Below are positions 16,834 to 28,481 of a stretch of 64,000 nucleotides of DNA, piece by piece. The notes under the pieces are model-generated. The model was not told the DNA's origin. It was given only the letters and a program-made list of their open reading frames with translations, and searched no databases. How positions within the stretch are numbered: the first letter of the stretch is position 1; each line of letters begins with the position of its first letter. A program made the position numbers and the translations under genes. Source of the stretch: an uncultured Alphaproteobacteria bacterium (lineage in GTDB: Bacteria > Pseudomonadota > Alphaproteobacteria > UBA6615). The DNA lies in NCBI GenBank assembly GCA_943787745.1, contig CALSNJ010000002.1, positions 454,904 to 518,903 of the forward strand, in the 5' to 3' direction.

Positions 16834-16923
16834 CCGTCATACCCGGACTTGATCCGGGTATCCACGTCCAGAGGTCACGTGACACATTCACGTGGATGGC
16901 CGGATCAAGTCCGGCCATGACGG
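16834..16923. repeat. ~90-bp imperfect palindrome; core 15-bp perfect inverted repeat CCGGACTTGATCCGG / CCGGATCAAGTCCGG plus nested CCACGT/ACGTGG and central GTCACGTGAC
   Basis: Read directly; lies between convergent comEC and lexA. Confidence 0.6.
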
Positions 16924-20526: not shown

Positions 20527-21353
20527 TGCTGGGCACCCGCGCTAAAGTTGGTTTCGCCGGGCGCCAGCAGATCACGCACAGCACCGGCAATATCATCCTG
20601 ACGCATCAGGGATTCCCCGATCAGGAAACACCGCGCGCCGACACCGGTCATTCGGACCAGATCATCGGGCGTAAACAGCCCGCTTTCGCAGACGACAACG
20701 CGATCCGCGGGAACCCGCGGTGCGAGTTCTTCCGTGGTCGCCAAATCGACTTTCAGGGTCTTGAGGTTGCGGTTGTTGATGCCAACCAGATCGGAATCCA
20801 CATCCAGCGCCCGGTCGAGTTCTTCGCCGTTGTGCACTTCGACCAGTACGTCCATACCCCAGTCGTGGGCAGCGGCGGCCAACTCGGCGGCCTGGGCGTC
20901 TTCCAGCGCGGCCATGATCAGCAAGATGCAGTCGGCACCCAGCGCGCGGGCCTCAGTCACCTGATAGGTGTCGAGCATAAAGTCCTTGCGGATCGAGGGG
21001 AGGGAGACCGCGCTGCGCGCTGCCACCAGATCGGCGTCCTTGCCCTGAAAATAGGGCGTGTCGGTGAGGACGGACATGCAGGTCGCACCACCTGCCTCAT
21101 AAGCCTTTGCGATCACCGGCGGATCGAAGTCCGCGCGGATCAGGCCTTTGCTCGGGCTGGCTTTCTTGATCTCGGCGATCAGACCGAAGCGACCGGCGGC
21201 TGCGCGCCCGGAGAGTGCGCGGGCAAAGCCACGGGTGGCACCGGCGTCTTTGGCACGGGCTTCAAGTTCAGACAGGGACGTCGCAGCCTTGCAGGCTGCA
21301 ATATGGACGCGTTTGTCGTCACAGATTTTGTCGAGAACGTTGCTCATCCTCAT
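20523..21353 (-). CDS. trpC: indole-3-glycerol phosphate synthase
   Basis: 276 aa TIM-barrel IGPS; position trpD-trpC. Confidence 0.9.
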
Positions 21354-22381
21354 GCGCCCCGATTGGTGATTTCAACAAGCCGCGTCAGCGTCTGTTTTGC
21401 GGCTCCGGAATCAATGGCGTCCTGCGCGATCGCAACACCGGATTTCAAATCGTCAGTCTTGTCCGCGATCATCAGCGAACCGGCCGCGGTCAGCACCACG
21501 CAATCGCGGAACGCGCTGGGTGTCCCATCGAGCATGGCGTGTAGGGCCTTGGCGTTGAAGGCGGAATCCCCACCCTTGATATCATCGAGCGTCGAACGGG
21601 CCAGTCCGGCATCCTCGGGCGTGACCTCATAGGTCGAGACCTTGCCGTCCTTGAGTTCGGAAACCCGGGCCGGGCCGGTTGTTGTCAGTTCGTCCGAGCC
21701 ATCATGGGCATGTACGACCCAGGCGCGTTCAAGGCCGAGATTCCCGAGCACCTGCGCCAGAGGTTCGGTCCATTGCGGGGCGAAAACTCCAGTCATCTGA
21801 CGCTTTACCAGAGACGGGTTGGACAGCGGGCCGAGAATGTTGAAGATCGTTCGTGTGGCGAGTTCGACCCGCGGTCCGGCCACATTGCGCATGGCGCTGT
21901 GGTGGCGGGGCGCCATCATGAAGCCGATATTGTTTTCCCACAGGGATTCCCGGATTAGCGCAAAATCGGCATCCACGTTGATGCCCAGTGCGGTCAAAAC
22001 GTCGGCGGCCCCGGTTTTGGAACTCAGCGCGCGGTTGCCATGCTTGGCGATGGGAATGCCACAGGCAGCCGTGACGATGGCCGATGCGGTCGAGATATTC
22101 AGCGTACCTTTGCCGTCACCCCCGGTGCCGACAATGTCCATTGCGCCTGCGGGCGCTTCGATCCCGGTGACCTTGCTGCGCATGGTGCGCGCGGCGCCGG
22201 TGATTTCAGCCACGGTTTCTCCGCGCAAACGCAGCGCCATCAGGAAGGCGCCGATCTGGGCGGGTGTGGCGTTGCCTGACATGATGATCTCGAAAGCGGT
22301 CTCGGCTTCGGACTCGTTCAGGGTCTCGCCATCGGCGACACGTGCCAGCAGGGGTTTGAGATCGTTCATATCGGCGTTCAT
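21350..22381 (-). CDS. trpD: anthranilate phosphoribosyltransferase
   Basis: [19 protein letters not shown] glycine-rich PRPP motif, 343 aa. Confidence 0.92.
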
Positions 22382-23007
22382 AGCGCCATCATCTCCCCGG
22401 CGCGGGTGTCGTCGCCGTAACTGCTCACGGCCTGTCCGGTCGCGAGTTCTATAAAATTGGCGAGCAGTTCATGCCCGGCCTCGGTTGCGATGCTCTCGGG
22501 GTGGAACTGCACCCCATGGATTGGCAGCTCTTTATGGCTGATGCCCATGATCACATCGTCAGACGTGTTTGCGGTCACCTCGAAACAATCGGGCAGGGTG
22601 TCCCGGTCGATGGCCAGTGAATGATACCGGGTCGCTTCGAGCGGATTGGATAGTCCACGAAACGGCCCCTGGCTGGTGTGGCGGACCCTGTCGACCTTGC
22701 CGTGCATGGGTTCGGGTGCGCGGATGATTTTGGCGCCGAACGCCTGTCCGATGGTCTGGTGGCCGAGGCACACGCCAAACAGCGGCATACGGATCTCGGC
22801 GGCCTTTTTGACAAGGTCGAGGCAGATGCCGGCATGGTCGGGATCGGACGGGCCGGGTGAGATCACAATTGCTTCGGGTGCGAGGGCGATCGCCTCATCA
22901 ACCGTCAGCGTGTCGTTGCGGCGCACATCACACGTCACCCCCAGCTCACCCAGGAAATGGACGAGGTTGTAGGTAAAGCTGTCGTAGTTGTCGATTAACA
23001 GAAACAT
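22378..23007 (-). CDS. trpG: anthranilate synthase component II / aminodeoxychorismate synthase glutamine amidotransferase
   Basis: Class I GATase with GVCLGHQ Cys motif and C-terminal His/Glu; 209 aa. Confidence 0.9.
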   Translation of the reverse strand: MFLLIDNYDSFTYNLVHFLGELGVTCDVRRNDTLTVDEAIALAPEAIVISPGPSDPDHAGICLDLVKKAAEIRMPLFGVCLGHQTIGQAFGAKIIRAPEPMHGKVDRVRHTSQGPFRGLSNPLEATRYHSLAIDRDTLPDCFEVTANTSDDVIMGISHKELPIHGVQFHPESIATEAGHELLANFIELATGQAVSSYGDDTRAGEMMAL

Positions 23008-23266
23008 ACCAGTGGGTTATCCGATTTTCCGGAGGTGAATTCCATATCCCGCAGACCCGCACGATAAGGCGCGTGACTTATAACAGTGAAGTTCGGGGCG
23101 GCAAAGATGTGTGATCAGGACGGGCGAACCAATTTCGGGAAACAAATTGCGGCGGCAGGCGTCTGTGTTCGATGGTTGCACGACCACGTAGCGATGTTCG
23201 ACTCTGTCATGAATTCGCCCTGATCAGGTGATGATCTGATCACCTCGAAAGGATGTTCTGCCAGCA

Positions 23267-24340
23267 ATGGCCAGCAAACCCAAAAAGAAGGCTTCCAAGC
23301 CCCGCAAGCGCGCGGCACCGGCCAAACGCAAGCGGACCAAAGCCGCCCCTGTGGCGTCATCAGGCCATGCGCGGTTGGCGAAGGTTGCCATGGGGGTGCT
23401 GGTGCTGGTGGCGTTGTTGGTGGCGGGACTGATCGTGTTTTCGCCATCAAAGGATCAGACCACACCGACTGTCGCGAAGGTCGCCGTGCCGCCGGTTGTT
23501 CCGGCACCTCCTCCAGAACCACAAGTCGAAGCGCAGCAGGCGCCCGCAGGGGAATCCGCGCCGCCGGTGCCGCTGCCAACCTTGCCCGATGTCGCCTATG
23601 TTCCCGATTTGCCGAAACCGACCTGGCTTCAGAACGCGGTGCAGACATCGGTTGCGCCGGGTCAGCCGATGATCGCCGTGGTGATCGATGATATGGGGCT
23701 CGACCGGGCACGGTCCCAGCGGACTGTGGATCTACCCGGTCCGTTGACGCTGGCCTATCTTGCTTATGCCGATGATCTGCTCAAGCAGACCGGGGCTGCG
23801 CGTTTGGTCGGCCATGAACTTCTGGTCCATGTGCCGATGGAGCCGGGGAGCGCCAGCACCGATCCCGGACCCAATGCCGTGCTCACGACATTGACGCCCG
23901 AAGAACTGACGCGCCGGATCGAATGGAATCTGTCTCAGTTTTCCGGCTTTGTCGGCATCAACAACCATATGGGTAGCAAGGCGACCAGTGACCGCACGGT
24001 CATGGCGGAAGTAATGGCGGCGCTCAAGCAGCGGGGTATGCTGTTTCTCGACAGTCGCACGGCGGGCACGACAATTGCCGAGAGTGAAGCTGTGAAAGCG
24101 GGAATTCCGGCCCTGCGCCGTGATGTTTTCCTCGATCATGACCCATCACCGATCGCGGTGCGGGCGGCACTGCTGCAGGTGGAGAAGGTCGCGCAACGGC
24201 AGGGGTTTGCGATTGCCATTGGCCATCCTAAGGACGCGACAATCGGTGCTCTGTCAGAATGGCTCCCGGATGTCCGCGCGCGCGGGTTTGCAATTGTTCC
24301 TGTGAGCACCATCGCATTGCACGTCGAGAACAACATGTAG
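23267..24340 (+). CDS. divergent polysaccharide deacetylase family protein (YibQ-like) with Lys/Ala/Pro-rich N-terminal tail and one TM
   Basis: Family motifs LTLAYLAYADDL ... GHELLVHVPMEP ... INNHMGS; N-terminus KPKKKASKPRKRAAPAKRKRTKAAP. Confidence 0.75.
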   Translation: MASKPKKKASKPRKRAAPAKRKRTKAAPVASSGHARLAKVAMGVLVLVALLVAGLIVFSPSKDQTTPTVAKVAVPPVVPAPPPEPQVEAQQAPAGESAPPVPLPTLPDVAYVPDLPKPTWLQNAVQTSVAPGQPMIAVVIDDMGLDRARSQRTVDLPGPLTLAYLAYADDLLKQTGAARLVGHELLVHVPMEPGSASTDPGPNAVLTTLTPEELTRRIEWNLSQFSGFVGINNHMGSKATSDRTVMAEVMAALKQRGMLFLDSRTAGTTIAESEAVKAGIPALRRDVFLDHDPSPIAVRAALLQVEKVAQRQGFAIAIGHPKDATIGALSEWLPDVRARGFAIVPVSTIALHVENNM

Positions 24341-24387
24341 GGGCGGGTTTCAAACCCGCCCGAACCAAGCAAACGGAAGACGAGACC

Positions 24388-24738
24388 ATGAGCGAGATCG
24401 AAATTCCGGACAGCGTTGCCATTGTCGAACTGAAGGTCGAGCCGTCTTATCTGCAGCTGTCCCGTGAAATCCGCGCCGAGAAATGGCAGATGATGCTAGG
24501 CATCATCCGCGCGCACCCGAATGTCAGTGTGACATGGAATGATGCCGACGCGTTCAGCGGGGAATGCTCGGACTTCGTTATCTGTCGCTTCAAGGTGATG
24601 TTCGACTATCACTGCATGTGGGAAGAGCTGAAGGACAGCGAGCTGTTCACAACGCCCTATTTCCACATCACCCGGGTCCTTATCGGTATGGAAAACGCCT
24701 TCGAGGTTTATGACGAGACGCTCGGGATCGAGGTCTGA
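24388..24738 (+). CDS. hypothetical acidic cytoplasmic protein (116 aa)
   Basis: ORF MSEIEIPDSVAIVELKVEP...; ATG 48 nt after the yibQ-like stop; no recognisable family. Confidence 0.5.
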   Translation: MSEIEIPDSVAIVELKVEPSYLQLSREIRAEKWQMMLGIIRAHPNVSVTWNDADAFSGECSDFVICRFKVMFDYHCMWEELKDSELFTTPYFHITRVLIGMENAFEVYDETLGIEV

Positions 24739-24749
24739 GCGGCACGCGT

Positions 24750-24866
24750 ATCTCAGCATCCTTCGAGACGCGCGCAATGCGCGCTCCTCAGGATGAGGTC
24801 TGTGCGTTTCTGCTGCGAACCTCATCCTGAGGAGGGCCGGAGGCCCGTCTCGAAGGATGCTGAGAT
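24750..24866. repeat. 117-nt perfectly nested palindrome (21-bp outer stem, 16-bp inner stem, two mini-hairpins CGCGC-AAT-GCGCG and GGCC-GGA-GGCC) predicting a four-way junction
   Basis: Read directly from the sequence; between the convergent 116-aa ORF and trpE. Confidence 0.75.
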
Positions 24867-24888
24867 GGCCTCAGAGACCGCAGAACAT

Positions 24889-26394
24889 CTAGTTGACGAA
24901 ACGGTGTGCCTGTTCGGCGGCGCGGATCAGGGCGCGGGCCTTGTTCTGGCTTTCCTGATATTCGGCTTCGGGGTCCGAATCTGCGACCACGCCGCCGCCA
25001 GCCTGGATGTACATTTTCTCATCCTTGATCAGGGCCGTACGCAGGGTGATGCAAGTATCCATGCTGCCATCGGCCGCAAAATAGCCGACTGCACCGGCAT
25101 AGAAACTGCGACGTTCGGATTCCAGTTCATCGATGATTTCCATCGCCCGGATTTTCGGGGCACCCGATACGGTTCCCGCCGGGAATCCTGCAGACAGCGC
25201 CTTGATGGCATCGATACCGGGCTTGGCCTCACCCTGCACATTGGAAACGATGTGCATGACATGACTGTAGCGTTCGATCATGAACTCTTCGGTCACTTCG
25301 ACGGACCCGATCTCAGACACCCGGCCGACATCGTTGCGTCCGAGATCAAGCAGCATCAGGTGCTCGGCGAGTTCCTTGGGGTCAGACAGCAGGTCTTCGG
25401 CAAGTGCCTCGTCTTCGGCCTCGTTCGCGCCGCGCGGACGGGTGCCTGCGATGGGACGAATTGTGACCGTGTCATCGCGCAGGCGAACCAGAATTTCAGG
25501 GCTTGAGCCGACAAGCGCAAAATCTCCGACATTCAGGACGAACAGGAAGGGTGAGGGGTTGAGGCGACGCAACGAGCGGTAAAGCGCGGTGGGCGGCAGA
25601 TCAAAAGGAACCGTGAAGCGCTGGGACGGCACGACCTGGAAGATTTCGCCAGCGCGGATGTACTCCTTCGCCTGCTCGACCATGGCGTGGTACTGGCTCT
25701 GGCTCCGGTTTGAGGTGATTGAAAGCTCGACTTCCGAACCCGCCGGAACACTGGCGGTCCGCGGAACACCGCGATCAAAACGGGCAACAGTCTCATCAAG
25801 ACGTGCCTTTGCTGCGGCAGCCGCGTCTTCAGCGCTGACATCGGCCTGCGGCCAAACCGGGGTCACAAGAGTGACTTTGTCGGCAACATTGTCGAAAACG
25901 GCGGTGATCGTAGGTCGGATAAAGACAGAATCCGGAATGCCGATGGGATCGGGATTGTTGTCGGGCAATGTCTCGATCTGGCGCACGATGTCGTAGCCGA
26001 AATACCCAAAAAGACCGGCAGCCATCGGTGGCAGTTCGGACGGAATATCTATCCGGGATTCAGCGAGCAGAGCGGCCAGCGCATCGAGGCTTTCCCCGGG
26101 CACTGGTTCAAAGCTTTCGAGGTCGTGCTGTGCGTTGCGGTTGATTTCGGATTTCGCGCCGTGACAGCGCCAGATCAGGTCGGGGGCATAGGCGAGGATC
26201 GAGTAACGACCGCGAACAGCGCCGCCCTCGACGGATTCAAGAAGGATGCTGTGGCTCTCGTCACTGGCCAGCTTGAGCAAAGCCGAGACCGGTGTCTCAA
26301 GGTCTGCGACCAGTTCAGTCCAGATCAGCTGCGCTTCGCCGTTTTCATAGCGCGCCGCGAATCCGTCTTCGCTATTTTCTGGCTGCTGGGTCAC
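24889..26394 (-). CDS. trpE: anthranilate synthase component I
   Basis: 501 aa chorismate-binding enzyme; start overlaps the ppiD stop by 4 nt. Confidence 0.92.
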   Translation of the reverse strand: MTQQPENSEDGFAARYENGEAQLIWTELVADLETPVSALLKLASDESHSILLESVEGGAVRGRYSILAYAPDLIWRCHGAKSEINRNAQHDLESFEPVPGESLDALAALLAESRIDIPSELPPMAAGLFGYFGYDIVRQIETLPDNNPDPIGIPDSVFIRPTITAVFDNVADKVTLVTPVWPQADVSAEDAAAAAKARLDETVARFDRGVPRTASVPAGSEVELSITSNRSQSQYHAMVEQAKEYIRAGEIFQVVPSQRFTVPFDLPPTALYRSLRRLNPSPFLFVLNVGDFALVGSSPEILVRLRDDTVTIRPIAGTRPRGANEAEDEALAEDLLSDPKELAEHLMLLDLGRNDVGRVSEIGSVEVTEEFMIERYSHVMHIVSNVQGEAKPGIDAIKALSAGFPAGTVSGAPKIRAMEIIDELESERRSFYAGAVGYFAADGSMDTCITLRTALIKDEKMYIQAGGGVVADSDPEAEYQESQNKARALIRAAEQAHRFVN

Positions 26395-28283
26395 TGGGGC
26401 AAGAACGCCGCTTCGAGCGCTGCACTGTCGACATCCACAGAAATCTCATCCTGCAGAGCAAGCGACAACTGGGTCACAAGGTCGTTGGCCAGCTGACCTG
26501 AAAGAGACCGTGCAAGTTCTTCGCGTGCGGGGTCGCTCAGATTGGCGCTTTCGATATCAACAAGCTTTGCAACGGCCACGCCGTCCGCGAAGGTCTGTTC
26601 GACAATATCGCTGACCTCAGCGTCAAAGATTGCACCCACCAGCGGAAGGGCGACCGTTGCTCCTTCACCGGATCTGTCGAAGGCGGCGGTGCGATCAAAT
26701 TTCGCAGCGAACTCAGTGGCAAGTGTTTCGAGGCTCTCACCCGTCTTTGCACGTTCGGCAATTTTGCTGGCGGTCTCTTCGGCAGCGACAAGGAGTTGTT
26801 CGCCTTTCCAGGCCTCGATGGCCAGATCACGGACTTCACTCAGTTCGGGGATACGAGGCTCGTCGATACGGTCAAAACGCAGGACGCTGAATCCACCGGA
26901 GCGGTTTTCGATCACTTCTGAAATTCCCGGCTCTTCGAGACCGAACAGGCGAGCCAGGACTTCCGGGGTGATCGCAGGATTGTCGAGAGGCGTGCCGCTT
27001 GGTGTCAGACCGTTGCGGGCGACACTATCGATTTTAGATGTTTCAAGATTACTGTCACGCGCGATCTCTTCAAGGGTGGCACCGCCGGCGAGACCGTCTT
27101 CGACATCATTGAGAACGTCAAAGATCCGATCGACGGATTGCTCACGGGCGAGTTCATCCCGAATGGAGCTGCTGGCTTCTGACAGGGGTGTCGTGCGTCC
27201 CGGCACGATGTTGGACACTTCAACCAGATGCCATCCCAGAATGCTTTCGATCGGGTCGCTGAGACTGTTGGCCGCCATGGTAAAGGCGGCCTCGGCCAAT
27301 GCGGGGAGAGCAATCTCCGAGCGGCGAACCTGACCGAGATTGACGGGAGGCAGACCAGAGACCTCTTCAGCGGCCTCGGCGAGGGTTTTCCCCTCGCGGA
27401 TAAGTGTCAGTGCCTGATCCGCATCTTCGCGCGTCAGCAGGCTGGCTTGCACGACATTGCGTGTTTCAGGAATTTGGAAATCATTCAGGCGGGATTCATA
27501 TTCTTCGGCAATTTCCTCGTCCGGGATGACAATGCTGTCGACAAGGGCGTCTATTTCGAGGGTCGCCAGAGACGCGCCGCGATACTGCGGGGTCCTGAAG
27601 CCATCCTTGTTTTCGTTAAAGAACTCGGAGAGTTCAGTTTCGCCGGGGTTGGCAATCGCCCCGATGTTGCCCAAGGGCACAGATACAATATCGGCAACGC
27701 GACGTTCGGCGCGGCGGTTATAGATCGTATCGCCCAGTGTTGCGGGTGTCGCGACGGCGTTCTGGATCGTTCCGATATACTGGCTGCGAAGAAGATCAAG
27801 CCGGACCTGATTCACGAAATCAGCTTCGCTCTGTCCCTGGTTCCCGAGAAACGTTTCGAACAATGTGCGATTAAACCGACCCGTGCTGTCCTGAAATTGC
27901 GGGAGGCTGCGAATGGCATCTGATGCGGCTGCAAGAGAGGCGGTGACGCCAAGGTTTTGCGCTGCCTGATCAAACAGGGCCTGTGAAGCCATTCTTGCGA
28001 TTGTTTGATCGAGAATGCCGATATTGATCGCAGTTTGTGTATCGAGCCGCTGGCCTGTGCGGGCACTGATCTGGGCGACATCCTCGTTGAATTCCCGACC
28101 CACTTGATGAATCGTGAAGTTCTGATCTCCGACTTCGAGAACGGAGGAGCCGCCGCCACTGCCGCCATGGCCGCCGCCGCCTCCAATGTCACCACCGAAG
28201 AATACGACGAATGTCGCAGCCAGGAGGATAAGGATACCCTTCATAACCCAGCTTTTTGAGGCATTTCTAAGTGCGGACAACAT
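26391..28283 (-). CDS. ppiD: SurA N-terminal domain-containing peptidyl-prolyl isomerase (PpiD-like)
   Basis: 630 aa, N-terminal TM, Gly-rich tract, parvulin-like region; ATG at 28283 chosen over the upstream extension. Confidence 0.7.
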   Translation of the reverse strand: MLSALRNASKSWVMKGILILLAATFVVFFGGDIGGGGGHGGSGGGSSVLEVGDQNFTIHQVGREFNEDVAQISARTGQRLDTQTAINIGILDQTIARMASQALFDQAAQNLGVTASLAAASDAIRSLPQFQDSTGRFNRTLFETFLGNQGQSEADFVNQVRLDLLRSQYIGTIQNAVATPATLGDTIYNRRAERRVADIVSVPLGNIGAIANPGETELSEFFNENKDGFRTPQYRGASLATLEIDALVDSIVIPDEEIAEEYESRLNDFQIPETRNVVQASLLTREDADQALTLIREGKTLAEAAEEVSGLPPVNLGQVRRSEIALPALAEAAFTMAANSLSDPIESILGWHLVEVSNIVPGRTTPLSEASSSIRDELAREQSVDRIFDVLNDVEDGLAGGATLEEIARDSNLETSKIDSVARNGLTPSGTPLDNPAITPEVLARLFGLEEPGISEVIENRSGGFSVLRFDRIDEPRIPELSEVRDLAIEAWKGEQLLVAAEETASKIAERAKTGESLETLATEFAAKFDRTAAFDRSGEGATVALPLVGAIFDAEVSDIVEQTFADGVAVAKLVDIESANLSDPAREELARSLSGQLANDLVTQLSLALQDEISVDVDSAALEAAFLPQ

Positions 28284-28481
28284 GTCGAATTCACCGTCGT
28301 GGTTGGAGGCCAGAGTGCACCAAAGGCAGCGCATGATAGTAATCGGTTTCAGGTGCCTCAAGCACCCCGCGTCTTGTCTACCAATGGGGAGATTGGCGCA
28401 AGCCGAAGACGTGTGTTAGAGCACGATAATTGTGGTGTAACGACCCGCAATTCCAGAGAAAAGCAACATTTTGGTGATGAC

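Follow-up and report, generated by a model that had tools for sequence, protein, structure and literature searches.

A nested palindrome between trpE and a darcynin-like gene is probably one copy of a dispersed REP/BIME-like repeat family of Alphaproteobacteria

The convergent genes trpE and darcynin-like of an uncultured alphaproteobacterium are separated by a 117-nt nested palindrome. We consider it probable, at roughly 80%, that this element is one copy of a dispersed, modular REP/BIME/REPIN-like repeat family of Alphaproteobacteria. When the sequence was first described, a REP/BIME-like mobile palindromic unit was one of several roles proposed for it; this proposal is supported by occurrence at many unrelated loci, by a modular build and by presence or absence that varies between near-identical genomes. 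In broad terms the unit behaves as REP/BIME-like sequences do, being repeated at many extragenic sites and arranged in inverted dimers and mosaics.

Anatomy of the element and its surroundings

The window, by which we mean the whole 64-kb stretch of DNA analysed, holds the element between trpE and a gene that had been described as hypothetical, and which is a Darcynin-like ORF convergent with trpE. The features are listed below.

24391 to 24738, plus strand: Darcynin-like gene, 116 aa as called in public contigs, stop codon 11 nt upstream of the element
24739 to 24749: left spacer GCGGCACGCGT, no counterpart at empty sites
24750 to 24866, no strand: 117-nt element, head-to-head dimer of two inverted half-units, four-way junction possible
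24750 to 24770: outer stem, 5' arm, pairs perfectly with 24846-24866 (21/21 bp)
24754 to 24801, minus strand: half-unit 1, CCTCATCCTGAGGAG-CGCGCATTGCGCG-CGTCTCGAAGGATG, covariance model R1 64.5 bits, E 2.6e-16
24771 to 24783: mini-hairpin 1, CGCGC-AAT-GCGCG, a module hypervariable across the family yet always paired
24784 to 24799: inner stem, 5' arm CTCCTCAGGATGAGGT, pairs with 24819-24834 (16/16 bp)
24800 to 24818: central loop, 19 nt, unconserved in the family; the syntenic copy of a related metagenome-assembled genome (MAG) departs from it at 6 of 19 positions
24817 to 24862, plus strand: half-unit 2, CCTCATCCTGAGGAG-GGCCGGAGGCC-CGTCTCGAAGGATG, covariance model R1 63.9 bits, E 4e-16
24819 to 24834: inner stem, 3' arm ACCTCATCCTGAGGAG
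24835 to 24845: mini-hairpin 2, GGCC-GGA-GGCC, a G-N-A triloop on the plus strand
24846 to 24866: outer stem, 3' arm CGTCTCGAAGGATGCTGAGAT
24867 to 24888: right spacer GGCCTCAGAGACCGCAGAACAT, missing from empty sites
24889 to 26394, minus strand: trpE, anthranilate synthase component I, 501 aa, with Chorismate_bind and Anth_synt_I_N domains

Re-reading the sequence reproduced the coordinates, the stems and the mini-hairpins first reported for this palindrome, including a junction with zero unpaired bases. The element is strand-symmetric and ends 22 nt from the stop codon of trpE. Within the outer 5' arm, the core TCCTTCGAGACG is family-wide, and the extension ATCTCAGCA belongs to one subfamily only. 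Folding, which the original prediction had recommended as a check, predicts the four-way junction on both strands, for RNA as well as for DNA. The RNA folds (ViennaRNA) reach -94.8 and -94.0 kcal/mol on the two strands (z -8.7 and -9.9), a stability matched by 0 of 200 shuffles, and the DNA fold reaches -52 kcal/mol (z -11). The 21-mer arm has 0 chance matches in the shuffled window. The 117-nt nested palindrome is real and far beyond chance.

No T-run follows the structure on either strand, as the original prediction had stated; a promoter and terminator scan agrees, with no promoter-like or terminator-like site in or beside the element. A Rho-independent terminator, which requires a U-tract behind a G+C hairpin, was rejected on these grounds. 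Three further candidates were set aside: an integron attC site (no R''/R' core sites, GTTRRRY, in the sequence), a tRNA-like structure (no tRNA cloverleaf with unpaired linkers) and a retron ncRNA (no adjacent reverse transcriptase, the neighbours being trpE, the darcynin-like gene, a deacetylase gene and ppiD).

The surrounding trp cluster is split (window 21350-28361). Minus-strand ppiD-trpE lies apart from trpG-trpD, and the two plus-strand genes that divide them, a divergent polysaccharide deacetylase gene and the darcynin-like gene, keep this order in all relatives examined. Directly 3' of the Polysacc_deac_2 stop codon, at window 24342-24360, we observed a separate hairpin, GGCGGGTTTCAAACCCGCC, which is unique within the window and recurs in the same intergenic region of the MAG and of a close relative of it, L158, as an inverted pair about 90 nt apart. 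This pairing suggests either a third type of repeat or, possibly, a terminator.

Dispersed copies and the architecture of the family

Is the palindrome confined to this junction? An exact scan of species genomes with the 21-mer returned one genome, the MAG Alphaproteobacteria bacterium SFB_Oligo_Co_136, where the gene order is as in the window and the element sits at the same place. Its 12.6-kb contig carries 3 copies: besides the syntenic one, a second full copy lies beyond the darcynin-like gene, on its far side, and a degenerate third copy is found 7 kb off. The 64-kb window itself holds a single element; with filters off, model R1 finds only its two half-units, the next match scoring 10.8 bits (E 0.68).

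Wider searches, of the kind that the original prediction had called for, turned up copies at many unrelated loci in many genomes. In IMG/VR the outer-arm pattern occurs at 9 loci, the inner-arm pattern at 13 and the half-unit pattern at 70, often several per contig; about 9 half-units lie on one contig of 25 kb. Among metagenomes, a 19-mer typical of the subtype found in the window matches 59 loci, of which 4 are the window's own locus and about 13 are chance coding matches. The remainder, which make up most of the matches, are complete elements (dimers) at unrelated sites on marine, estuarine, soil and lake contigs, some of them AT-rich; family members come from about 45 metagenome loci. Altogether the half-unit is present in more than 100 unrelated viral-collection and metagenome contigs, and the loci that we fetched contain 212 half-units. 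A BLAST search of plasmids with the 126-nt element gave nothing at 1e-3. With a Bradyrhizobium-like family member as query, BLAST found at least 40 places in one 2.8-Mb record of Methylobacterium bullatum, in which a doublet was confirmed with model R1 (a single stretch of 40 kb was checked), and copies in M. aquaticum and on several Rhizobium plasmids, likewise confirmed with model R1; the plasmid matches span the half-unit only.

Some copies lie in unexpected places. Single half-units are located inside long ORFs, as called by a crude gene caller, on five viral-collection contigs (L027 4808-4844, L033 7078-7114, L036 10008-10044, L041 2013-2049 and L080 8268-8305), and these may be intragenic copies. 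On contig L116 (2657-2700 and 3036-3080; also L136 and L117), the last 19 nt of an element are duplicated together with about 25 nt of right flank, the duplicate sitting 379 nt upstream without the rest of that element.

The half-unit is about 45 nt long, CCTCATCC-TGAGGAG-(mini-hairpin)-CGTCTCGAA-GGATG, and is itself an imperfect hairpin; the mini-hairpin module has 4-6 bp, is made of G+C and usually carries a G-N-A triloop. We sorted the copies into 143 non-redundant clusters: 41 window-type dimers, with TCCTTCGAG arms outside; 39 inverted dimers of the opposite type, whose CCTCATCC arms face outwards and enclose a small spacer, TGGCCGC...GCGGCCA; 58 singlets; and a few tandem arrays. In alignments A2 and A3 the arms hardly vary, whereas the mini-hairpin stems change from copy to copy and stay paired. 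Since the searches demanded conserved arms, this contrast is partly one of ascertainment across the family; the syntenic comparison of window and MAG, given below, is unaffected. Among 147 units there are 120 distinct mini-hairpin sequences, and 113 of the 147 have at least 4 perfect bp counted from the ends, against 1.6% in shuffles. Read on the strand of the half-unit formula above, the loops are GAA (32), GCA (19), GGA (5) and GTA (3), the complementary T-N-C type being essentially absent. A coding role was rejected: the hairpin lengths, 9-26 nt, are not multiples of three, and therefore no reading frame is kept. We also observed an orthologous single half-unit just after the stop codon of the same gene in two lineages (L091/L105/L133 and L108), with identical arms and wholly different mini-hairpins (CCGCCGGAGGCGG versus GCGCAACGCGC).

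Pairing co-varies at both levels of the structure. Across 36 dimers, 85.3% of the cells of the four-way junction pair, compared to 76.2% after shuffling and 37-46% in slid controls, and the covariation score of 0.222 (versus 0.096) is reached by 0 of 500 shuffles. For the half-unit, 100 copies give a score of 0.332 versus 0.093, again reached by 0 of 500 shuffles, with slid controls far lower. The half-unit pairs with itself through CATCC...GGATG, and compensatory changes (CATGG/CCATG, CATGC/GCATG and CACCC/GGGTG) are significant in a permutation test (0/2000). Heterodimers keep the pairing within each half and break the pairing between halves. It is therefore the half-unit that evolves as an entity, with the cloverleaf as one possible combination of two such units. 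The cloverleaf first described is a correct prediction for the window copy, but not the defining structure of the family.

Could the four-way junction nonetheless be the functional fold of a small structured RNA gene or of a cis-regulatory RNA? Such a reading is attractive insofar as pairing co-varies in all varying helices and the stems are strongly conserved between the syntenic copies. It has to contend with the absence of a promoter, with strand symmetry, with the occurrence of singlets, both dimer types and arrays, with heterodimers that break the junction stems, and with singlets that show no orientation bias relative to transcription (8 versus 7). Rfam, moreover, gave 0 matches at the gathering threshold in the window and in 12 family loci, and at a permissive E-value the element attracted generic miRNA-hairpin models only, far below threshold. 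We regard this reading as extremely improbable, and the small structured RNA offered among the initial proposals as unlikely on the same evidence.

Where do the copies lie with respect to genes? Classifiable copies occur between 46 tandem, 16 convergent and 10 divergent gene pairs, against a background of 295, 106 and 119. By these raw counts, which come from a crude gene caller, copies are rarer in divergent regions (10 of 72, versus 119 of 520 in the background). They usually lie 10-60 nt past the upstream stop codon. The home-made gene caller mis-called trpD in the window, and about one third of the clusters "overlap" ORFs, mostly over-extended starts; because the caller is crude, these context statistics are indicative only.

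Filled and empty sites in relatives

The exact TrpE protein is encoded on many contigs, some larger than 1 Mb. In 8 further samples of the same organism the element is identical, and the intergenic region is identical but for one flanking SNP; 4 metagenome contigs carry the identical element. We then compared the junction across relatives that share the order ppiD-trpE, deacetylase and darcynin-like, trpG-trpD. Six related syntenic lineages lack the element at this junction, and 3 of the 6 have abutting or overlapping stop codons. The stop codons are 10 nt apart in L153/L154, whose darcynin-like protein is 88% identical, and 8 nt apart in L151; in L157 the convergent genes overlap. In L149, CGTC-type REPs have replaced the darcynin-like 3' end and leave 8 nt before the stop codon of trpE, and L155 has an unrelated, AT-rich insert of about 960 nt at the junction. 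L158-L161 are the closest of these lineages, their TrpE falling into the same 90% protein cluster as that of the window; the element is absent from them, and the two stop codons share the overlap CTAG. From this comparison we infer that the window copy is acquired DNA, placed between two convergent genes that have abutting or overlapping stop codons in relatives. As a separate observation, the CGTC-type REPs of L149 (2790-2845) form the 3' end of its darcynin-like ORF, and the protein aligns to that of the window over 71% only; the repeat insertion therefore rewrote the C-terminus.

A locus-specific bidirectional terminator or attenuator, evolved for trpE and the darcynin-like gene, would suit the position of the element, 11 and 22 nt away from the stop codons of two convergent genes, and the extreme fold stability on both strands. 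As an origin of the element it is largely refuted and, in our estimate, highly improbable: neither strand has a U/T tract or a terminator consensus, syntenic relatives do without the element and have abutting or overlapping stop codons, and the element is found at many unrelated loci. Given six syntenic lineages without the element, the idea of a device tied to trpE is not supported either. According to the original prediction, a structure missing from homologous intergenic regions and without other genomic copies would probably be a lineage-specific terminator; relatives do lack the structure at this junction, and copies occur at unrelated loci in other genomes.

The MAG and its sister L158 are 95-98% identical over 12 kb and differ in presence or absence at three sites. 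At the first, the trpE junction, the MAG has 271 extra nucleotides exactly between GTCT and AGTTGAC, which consist of the element and CGTC REPs; TC is repeated at the junctions of this insert. At the second, between deacetylase and darcynin-like gene, a full dimer in the MAG faces one half-unit in L158, with the interior apparently inverted. The third site was observed as a degenerate dimer in the MAG (48-164) and as CGTC REPs in L158 (2161-2261, reverse strand), with flanks 97.7% identical. By sequence, different repeat families appear to replace each other at one site. The deacetylase/darcynin intergenic region measures about 60 nt in the window, versus a mosaic of 380-470 nt in the MAG and L158, in which at least 3 or 4 palindromic repeat families stand side by side (7180-7620 on L002, which is the MAG contig; 11860-12240 on L158).

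The ends of the inserted DNA can be placed closely. The left spacer GCGGCACGCGT was probably inserted along with the element, because a similar GGCGCGCGT or GGGCGCGT is found on the left side of both MAG copies. The last bases of the right spacer and the C of the trpE stop codon make up TCT, and the same TCT occurs at the left junction, so that the window insert is bracketed as GG-TCT-(insert)-TCT-AGTTGAC. Tentatively, this repeat would be a 3-bp target duplication, a reading that depends on the assumed ancestral sequence.

These borders raise the question of a classical MITE, an insertion sequence shortened by deletion that retains its terminal inverted repeats, depends on a DDE transposase for movement and duplicates a few bases of its target. 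The long terminal inverted repeats, the presence/absence polymorphism, the TCT that brackets the window insert and the TC repeated around that of the MAG are all in line with it. However, the apparent duplication is short and its ancestral sequence assumed, and in about 1.25 Mb around the copies we saw neither a full-length parent nor a transposase. Lone half-units, both dimer types and tandems follow the logic of REPs and BIMEs rather than that of a fixed unit bounded by inverted repeats, and almost every copy has hairpins and loops of its own in the interior. A MITE is accordingly quite unlikely, and we retain the modular REP/BIME-like repeat as the preferred reading.

How long has the copy resided at this site? 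The trpE genes of window and MAG share 82.7% DNA identity, and 129 of 260 four-fold sites (about 50%) differ. Between the two elements, by comparison, the stems differ at 1 of 92 positions and the loops at 8 of 25 (binomial P of about 4e-26). The frozen stems would result from strong selection, from homogenisation, whether by gene conversion or by self-correction of the palindrome, or from an arrival well after the split. Perfect palindromes can be maintained without selection by template-switch correction. The 32% loop divergence favours a long residence with constrained stems, as far as sequences can tell, and this would in turn require a clean loss in L158. Window and MAG copies share site, orientation and hairpins, and L158, the sister of the MAG, is empty; these sequences fit equally an ancestral presence with clean loss and an independent, targeted insertion.

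Known repeats, possible role and significance

How does the family relate to known repeats? It has much in common with the REP/BIME sequences of E. coli and the REPINs of Pseudomonas: short imperfect palindromes in extragenic positions near stop codons, alternating-orientation mosaics or dimers that can fold as one large hairpin, strain-variable occupancy, and a preference for tandem and convergent locations. Unlike GTAG REPs and REPINs, it has no GTAG or CTAC beside the stems of the element or in the family consensus. The present unit is also longer (about 45 nt), with invariant arms around a hypervariable G+C mini-hairpin. REPs conserve the stem sequence within a genome, whereas the mini-hairpin stems of the present family vary; and REP sequences are usually species-specific, whereas the arms seen here are conserved across distant genera. 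A tblastn search for RAYT proteins, made with an approximate query sequence, covered 1.25 Mb, reaching at most 10 kb around any copy; it gave nothing below E 0.3, and no transposase was found near copies.

The CGTC REPs (Di Nocera, De Gregorio and Rocco 2013, PMC3733652) resemble the family in several ways. They, too, belong to Alphaproteobacteria, have CGTC abutting a hairpin, are predominantly dimers, lie downstream of genes and have no known dedicated transposase. Membership among them was our first guess, and was rejected on the published definition of stem, loop and tail: 8-9 bp of stem that begin with A-T, loops of 4-5 nt and a terminal CCA (PMC3733652). The published families also carry their CGTC on the 5' side of the stem. 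In contrast, the stems of the present family are 4-6 bp of G+C only, the loops have 3 nt, a CCA tail is missing and CGTC follows the hairpin on its 3' side. Genuine CGTC REPs are nevertheless found alongside the family, sharing its genomes and even individual intergenic regions (window 16835-16922, the MAG, L149 and L158). The window pair is inverted and canonical, with CGTCATACCCGGACTTGATCCGGGTATCCA at 16835-16864 (plus strand) and CGTCATGGCCGGACTTGATCCGGCCATCCA at 16893-16922 (minus strand), and in each of them CGTC is accompanied by a 9-bp stem that begins with A-T, a loop of 5 nt and a CCA tail; these belong to the family already described.

In size and style the nearest named alphaproteobacterial elements are RIME1/RIME2 (Sinorhizobium, Rhizobium) and Bru-RS1/2 (Brucella), likewise mosaic palindromic intergenic repeats, of about 100-110 bp, which we compared by description only. 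A BLAST search of a plasmid collection, in which the S. meliloti megaplasmids are presumably included, with a family member gave no Sinorhizobium match at E≤1. Br-REP1 and Br-REP2 (Hahn et al. 2016, PMC5082802), which are transcribed in Bradyrhizobium, are palindromic repeats located where the 3'-UTRs of convergent genes overlap each other; they too have flanking palindromes and an abundance that varies strongly between relatives. They were excluded, their consensus sequences, CCGGAATCTCGAGATTCCGG and CGAGATTCCGGGTTCGGCTCTT-CGAGCCGCCCCGGAATGA, being unrelated to the element. Eight sequence sub-motifs, looked up in the searchable literature, retrieved primers and unrelated matches only. Within that literature, and judged by description as far as RIME and Bru-RS are concerned, the family is apparently unnamed.

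What might the element do? Two inverted half-units around a variable loop would give rise to the 117-nt four-way junction, and read-through RNA from either convergent gene would then carry this highly stable fold at its end. The model here is E. coli REP/BIME, whose effects on RNA ends are summarised elsewhere (PMC5082802, PMC3733652). Such an end would be expected to block 3'-to-5' exonucleases or to impede the polymerase, and a structure within 15 nt of a stop codon can disturb terminating ribosomes; here the distance to the darcynin-like gene is 11 nt. By this analogy we infer an effect on RNA 3' ends.

Alternatively, the element might act as DNA, by cruciform extrusion or through arms that bind a nucleoid or topology protein where convergent transcription builds supercoiling. 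Gyrase and IHF are proteins to which BIMEs bind in this way. As DNA the element folds very stably and its dyad symmetry is perfect, G-N-A triloops closed by C-G form unusually stable DNA mini-hairpins, and the invariant arms suggest sequence-specific recognition. Against such a role, many copies are singlets or lie between tandem genes, and long perfect palindromes are usually selected against. We hold a DNA-level function to be rather improbable.

For the spread of the family, whichever function its copies may have, our best guess is that a folded single strand would be recognised by a protein supplied in trans, because the arms are invariant, the stems are variable yet always paired, and the loop polarity is fixed. 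The signature is distinctive: arms of 12-15 nt are invariant from GC-rich soil bacteria to AT-rich marine genomes, and the hairpin stem differs in almost every copy. A stronger version, in which the family is a distinct, unnamed alphaproteobacterial repeat class whose folded single strand is recognised by a conserved non-RAYT protein, is speculative and, on balance, unlikely. If it were true, the head-to-head dimer would be a Holliday-junction-like intermediate or substrate, and the turnover at the same sites, including replacement by CGTC REPs, would point to one targeting machinery serving several families.

For annotation, the structure and its relatives should be taken neither for a trpE regulatory element nor for an sRNA gene, and copies of the family generate spurious small ORFs. 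Genomes that are more than 95% identical and yet differ in having a site filled or empty, and stems that are frozen while neutral sites are saturated, amount to natural experiments. We know of no mobilising enzyme for the REP-like elements of Alphaproteobacteria. A factor that recognises the arms would bear on the same question for the CGTC REPs, namely how palindromic repeats without a transposase spread and persist. For the organism, by analogy, the consequence is likely modest: an altered 3'-end stability or read-through of trpE and neighbouring transcripts. In kind, a REP-like repeat inserted between two genes is ordinary; what is unusual about this family is that conserved arms enclose a paired core which is itself hypervariable, and that copies turn over very fast while the sites stay the same.
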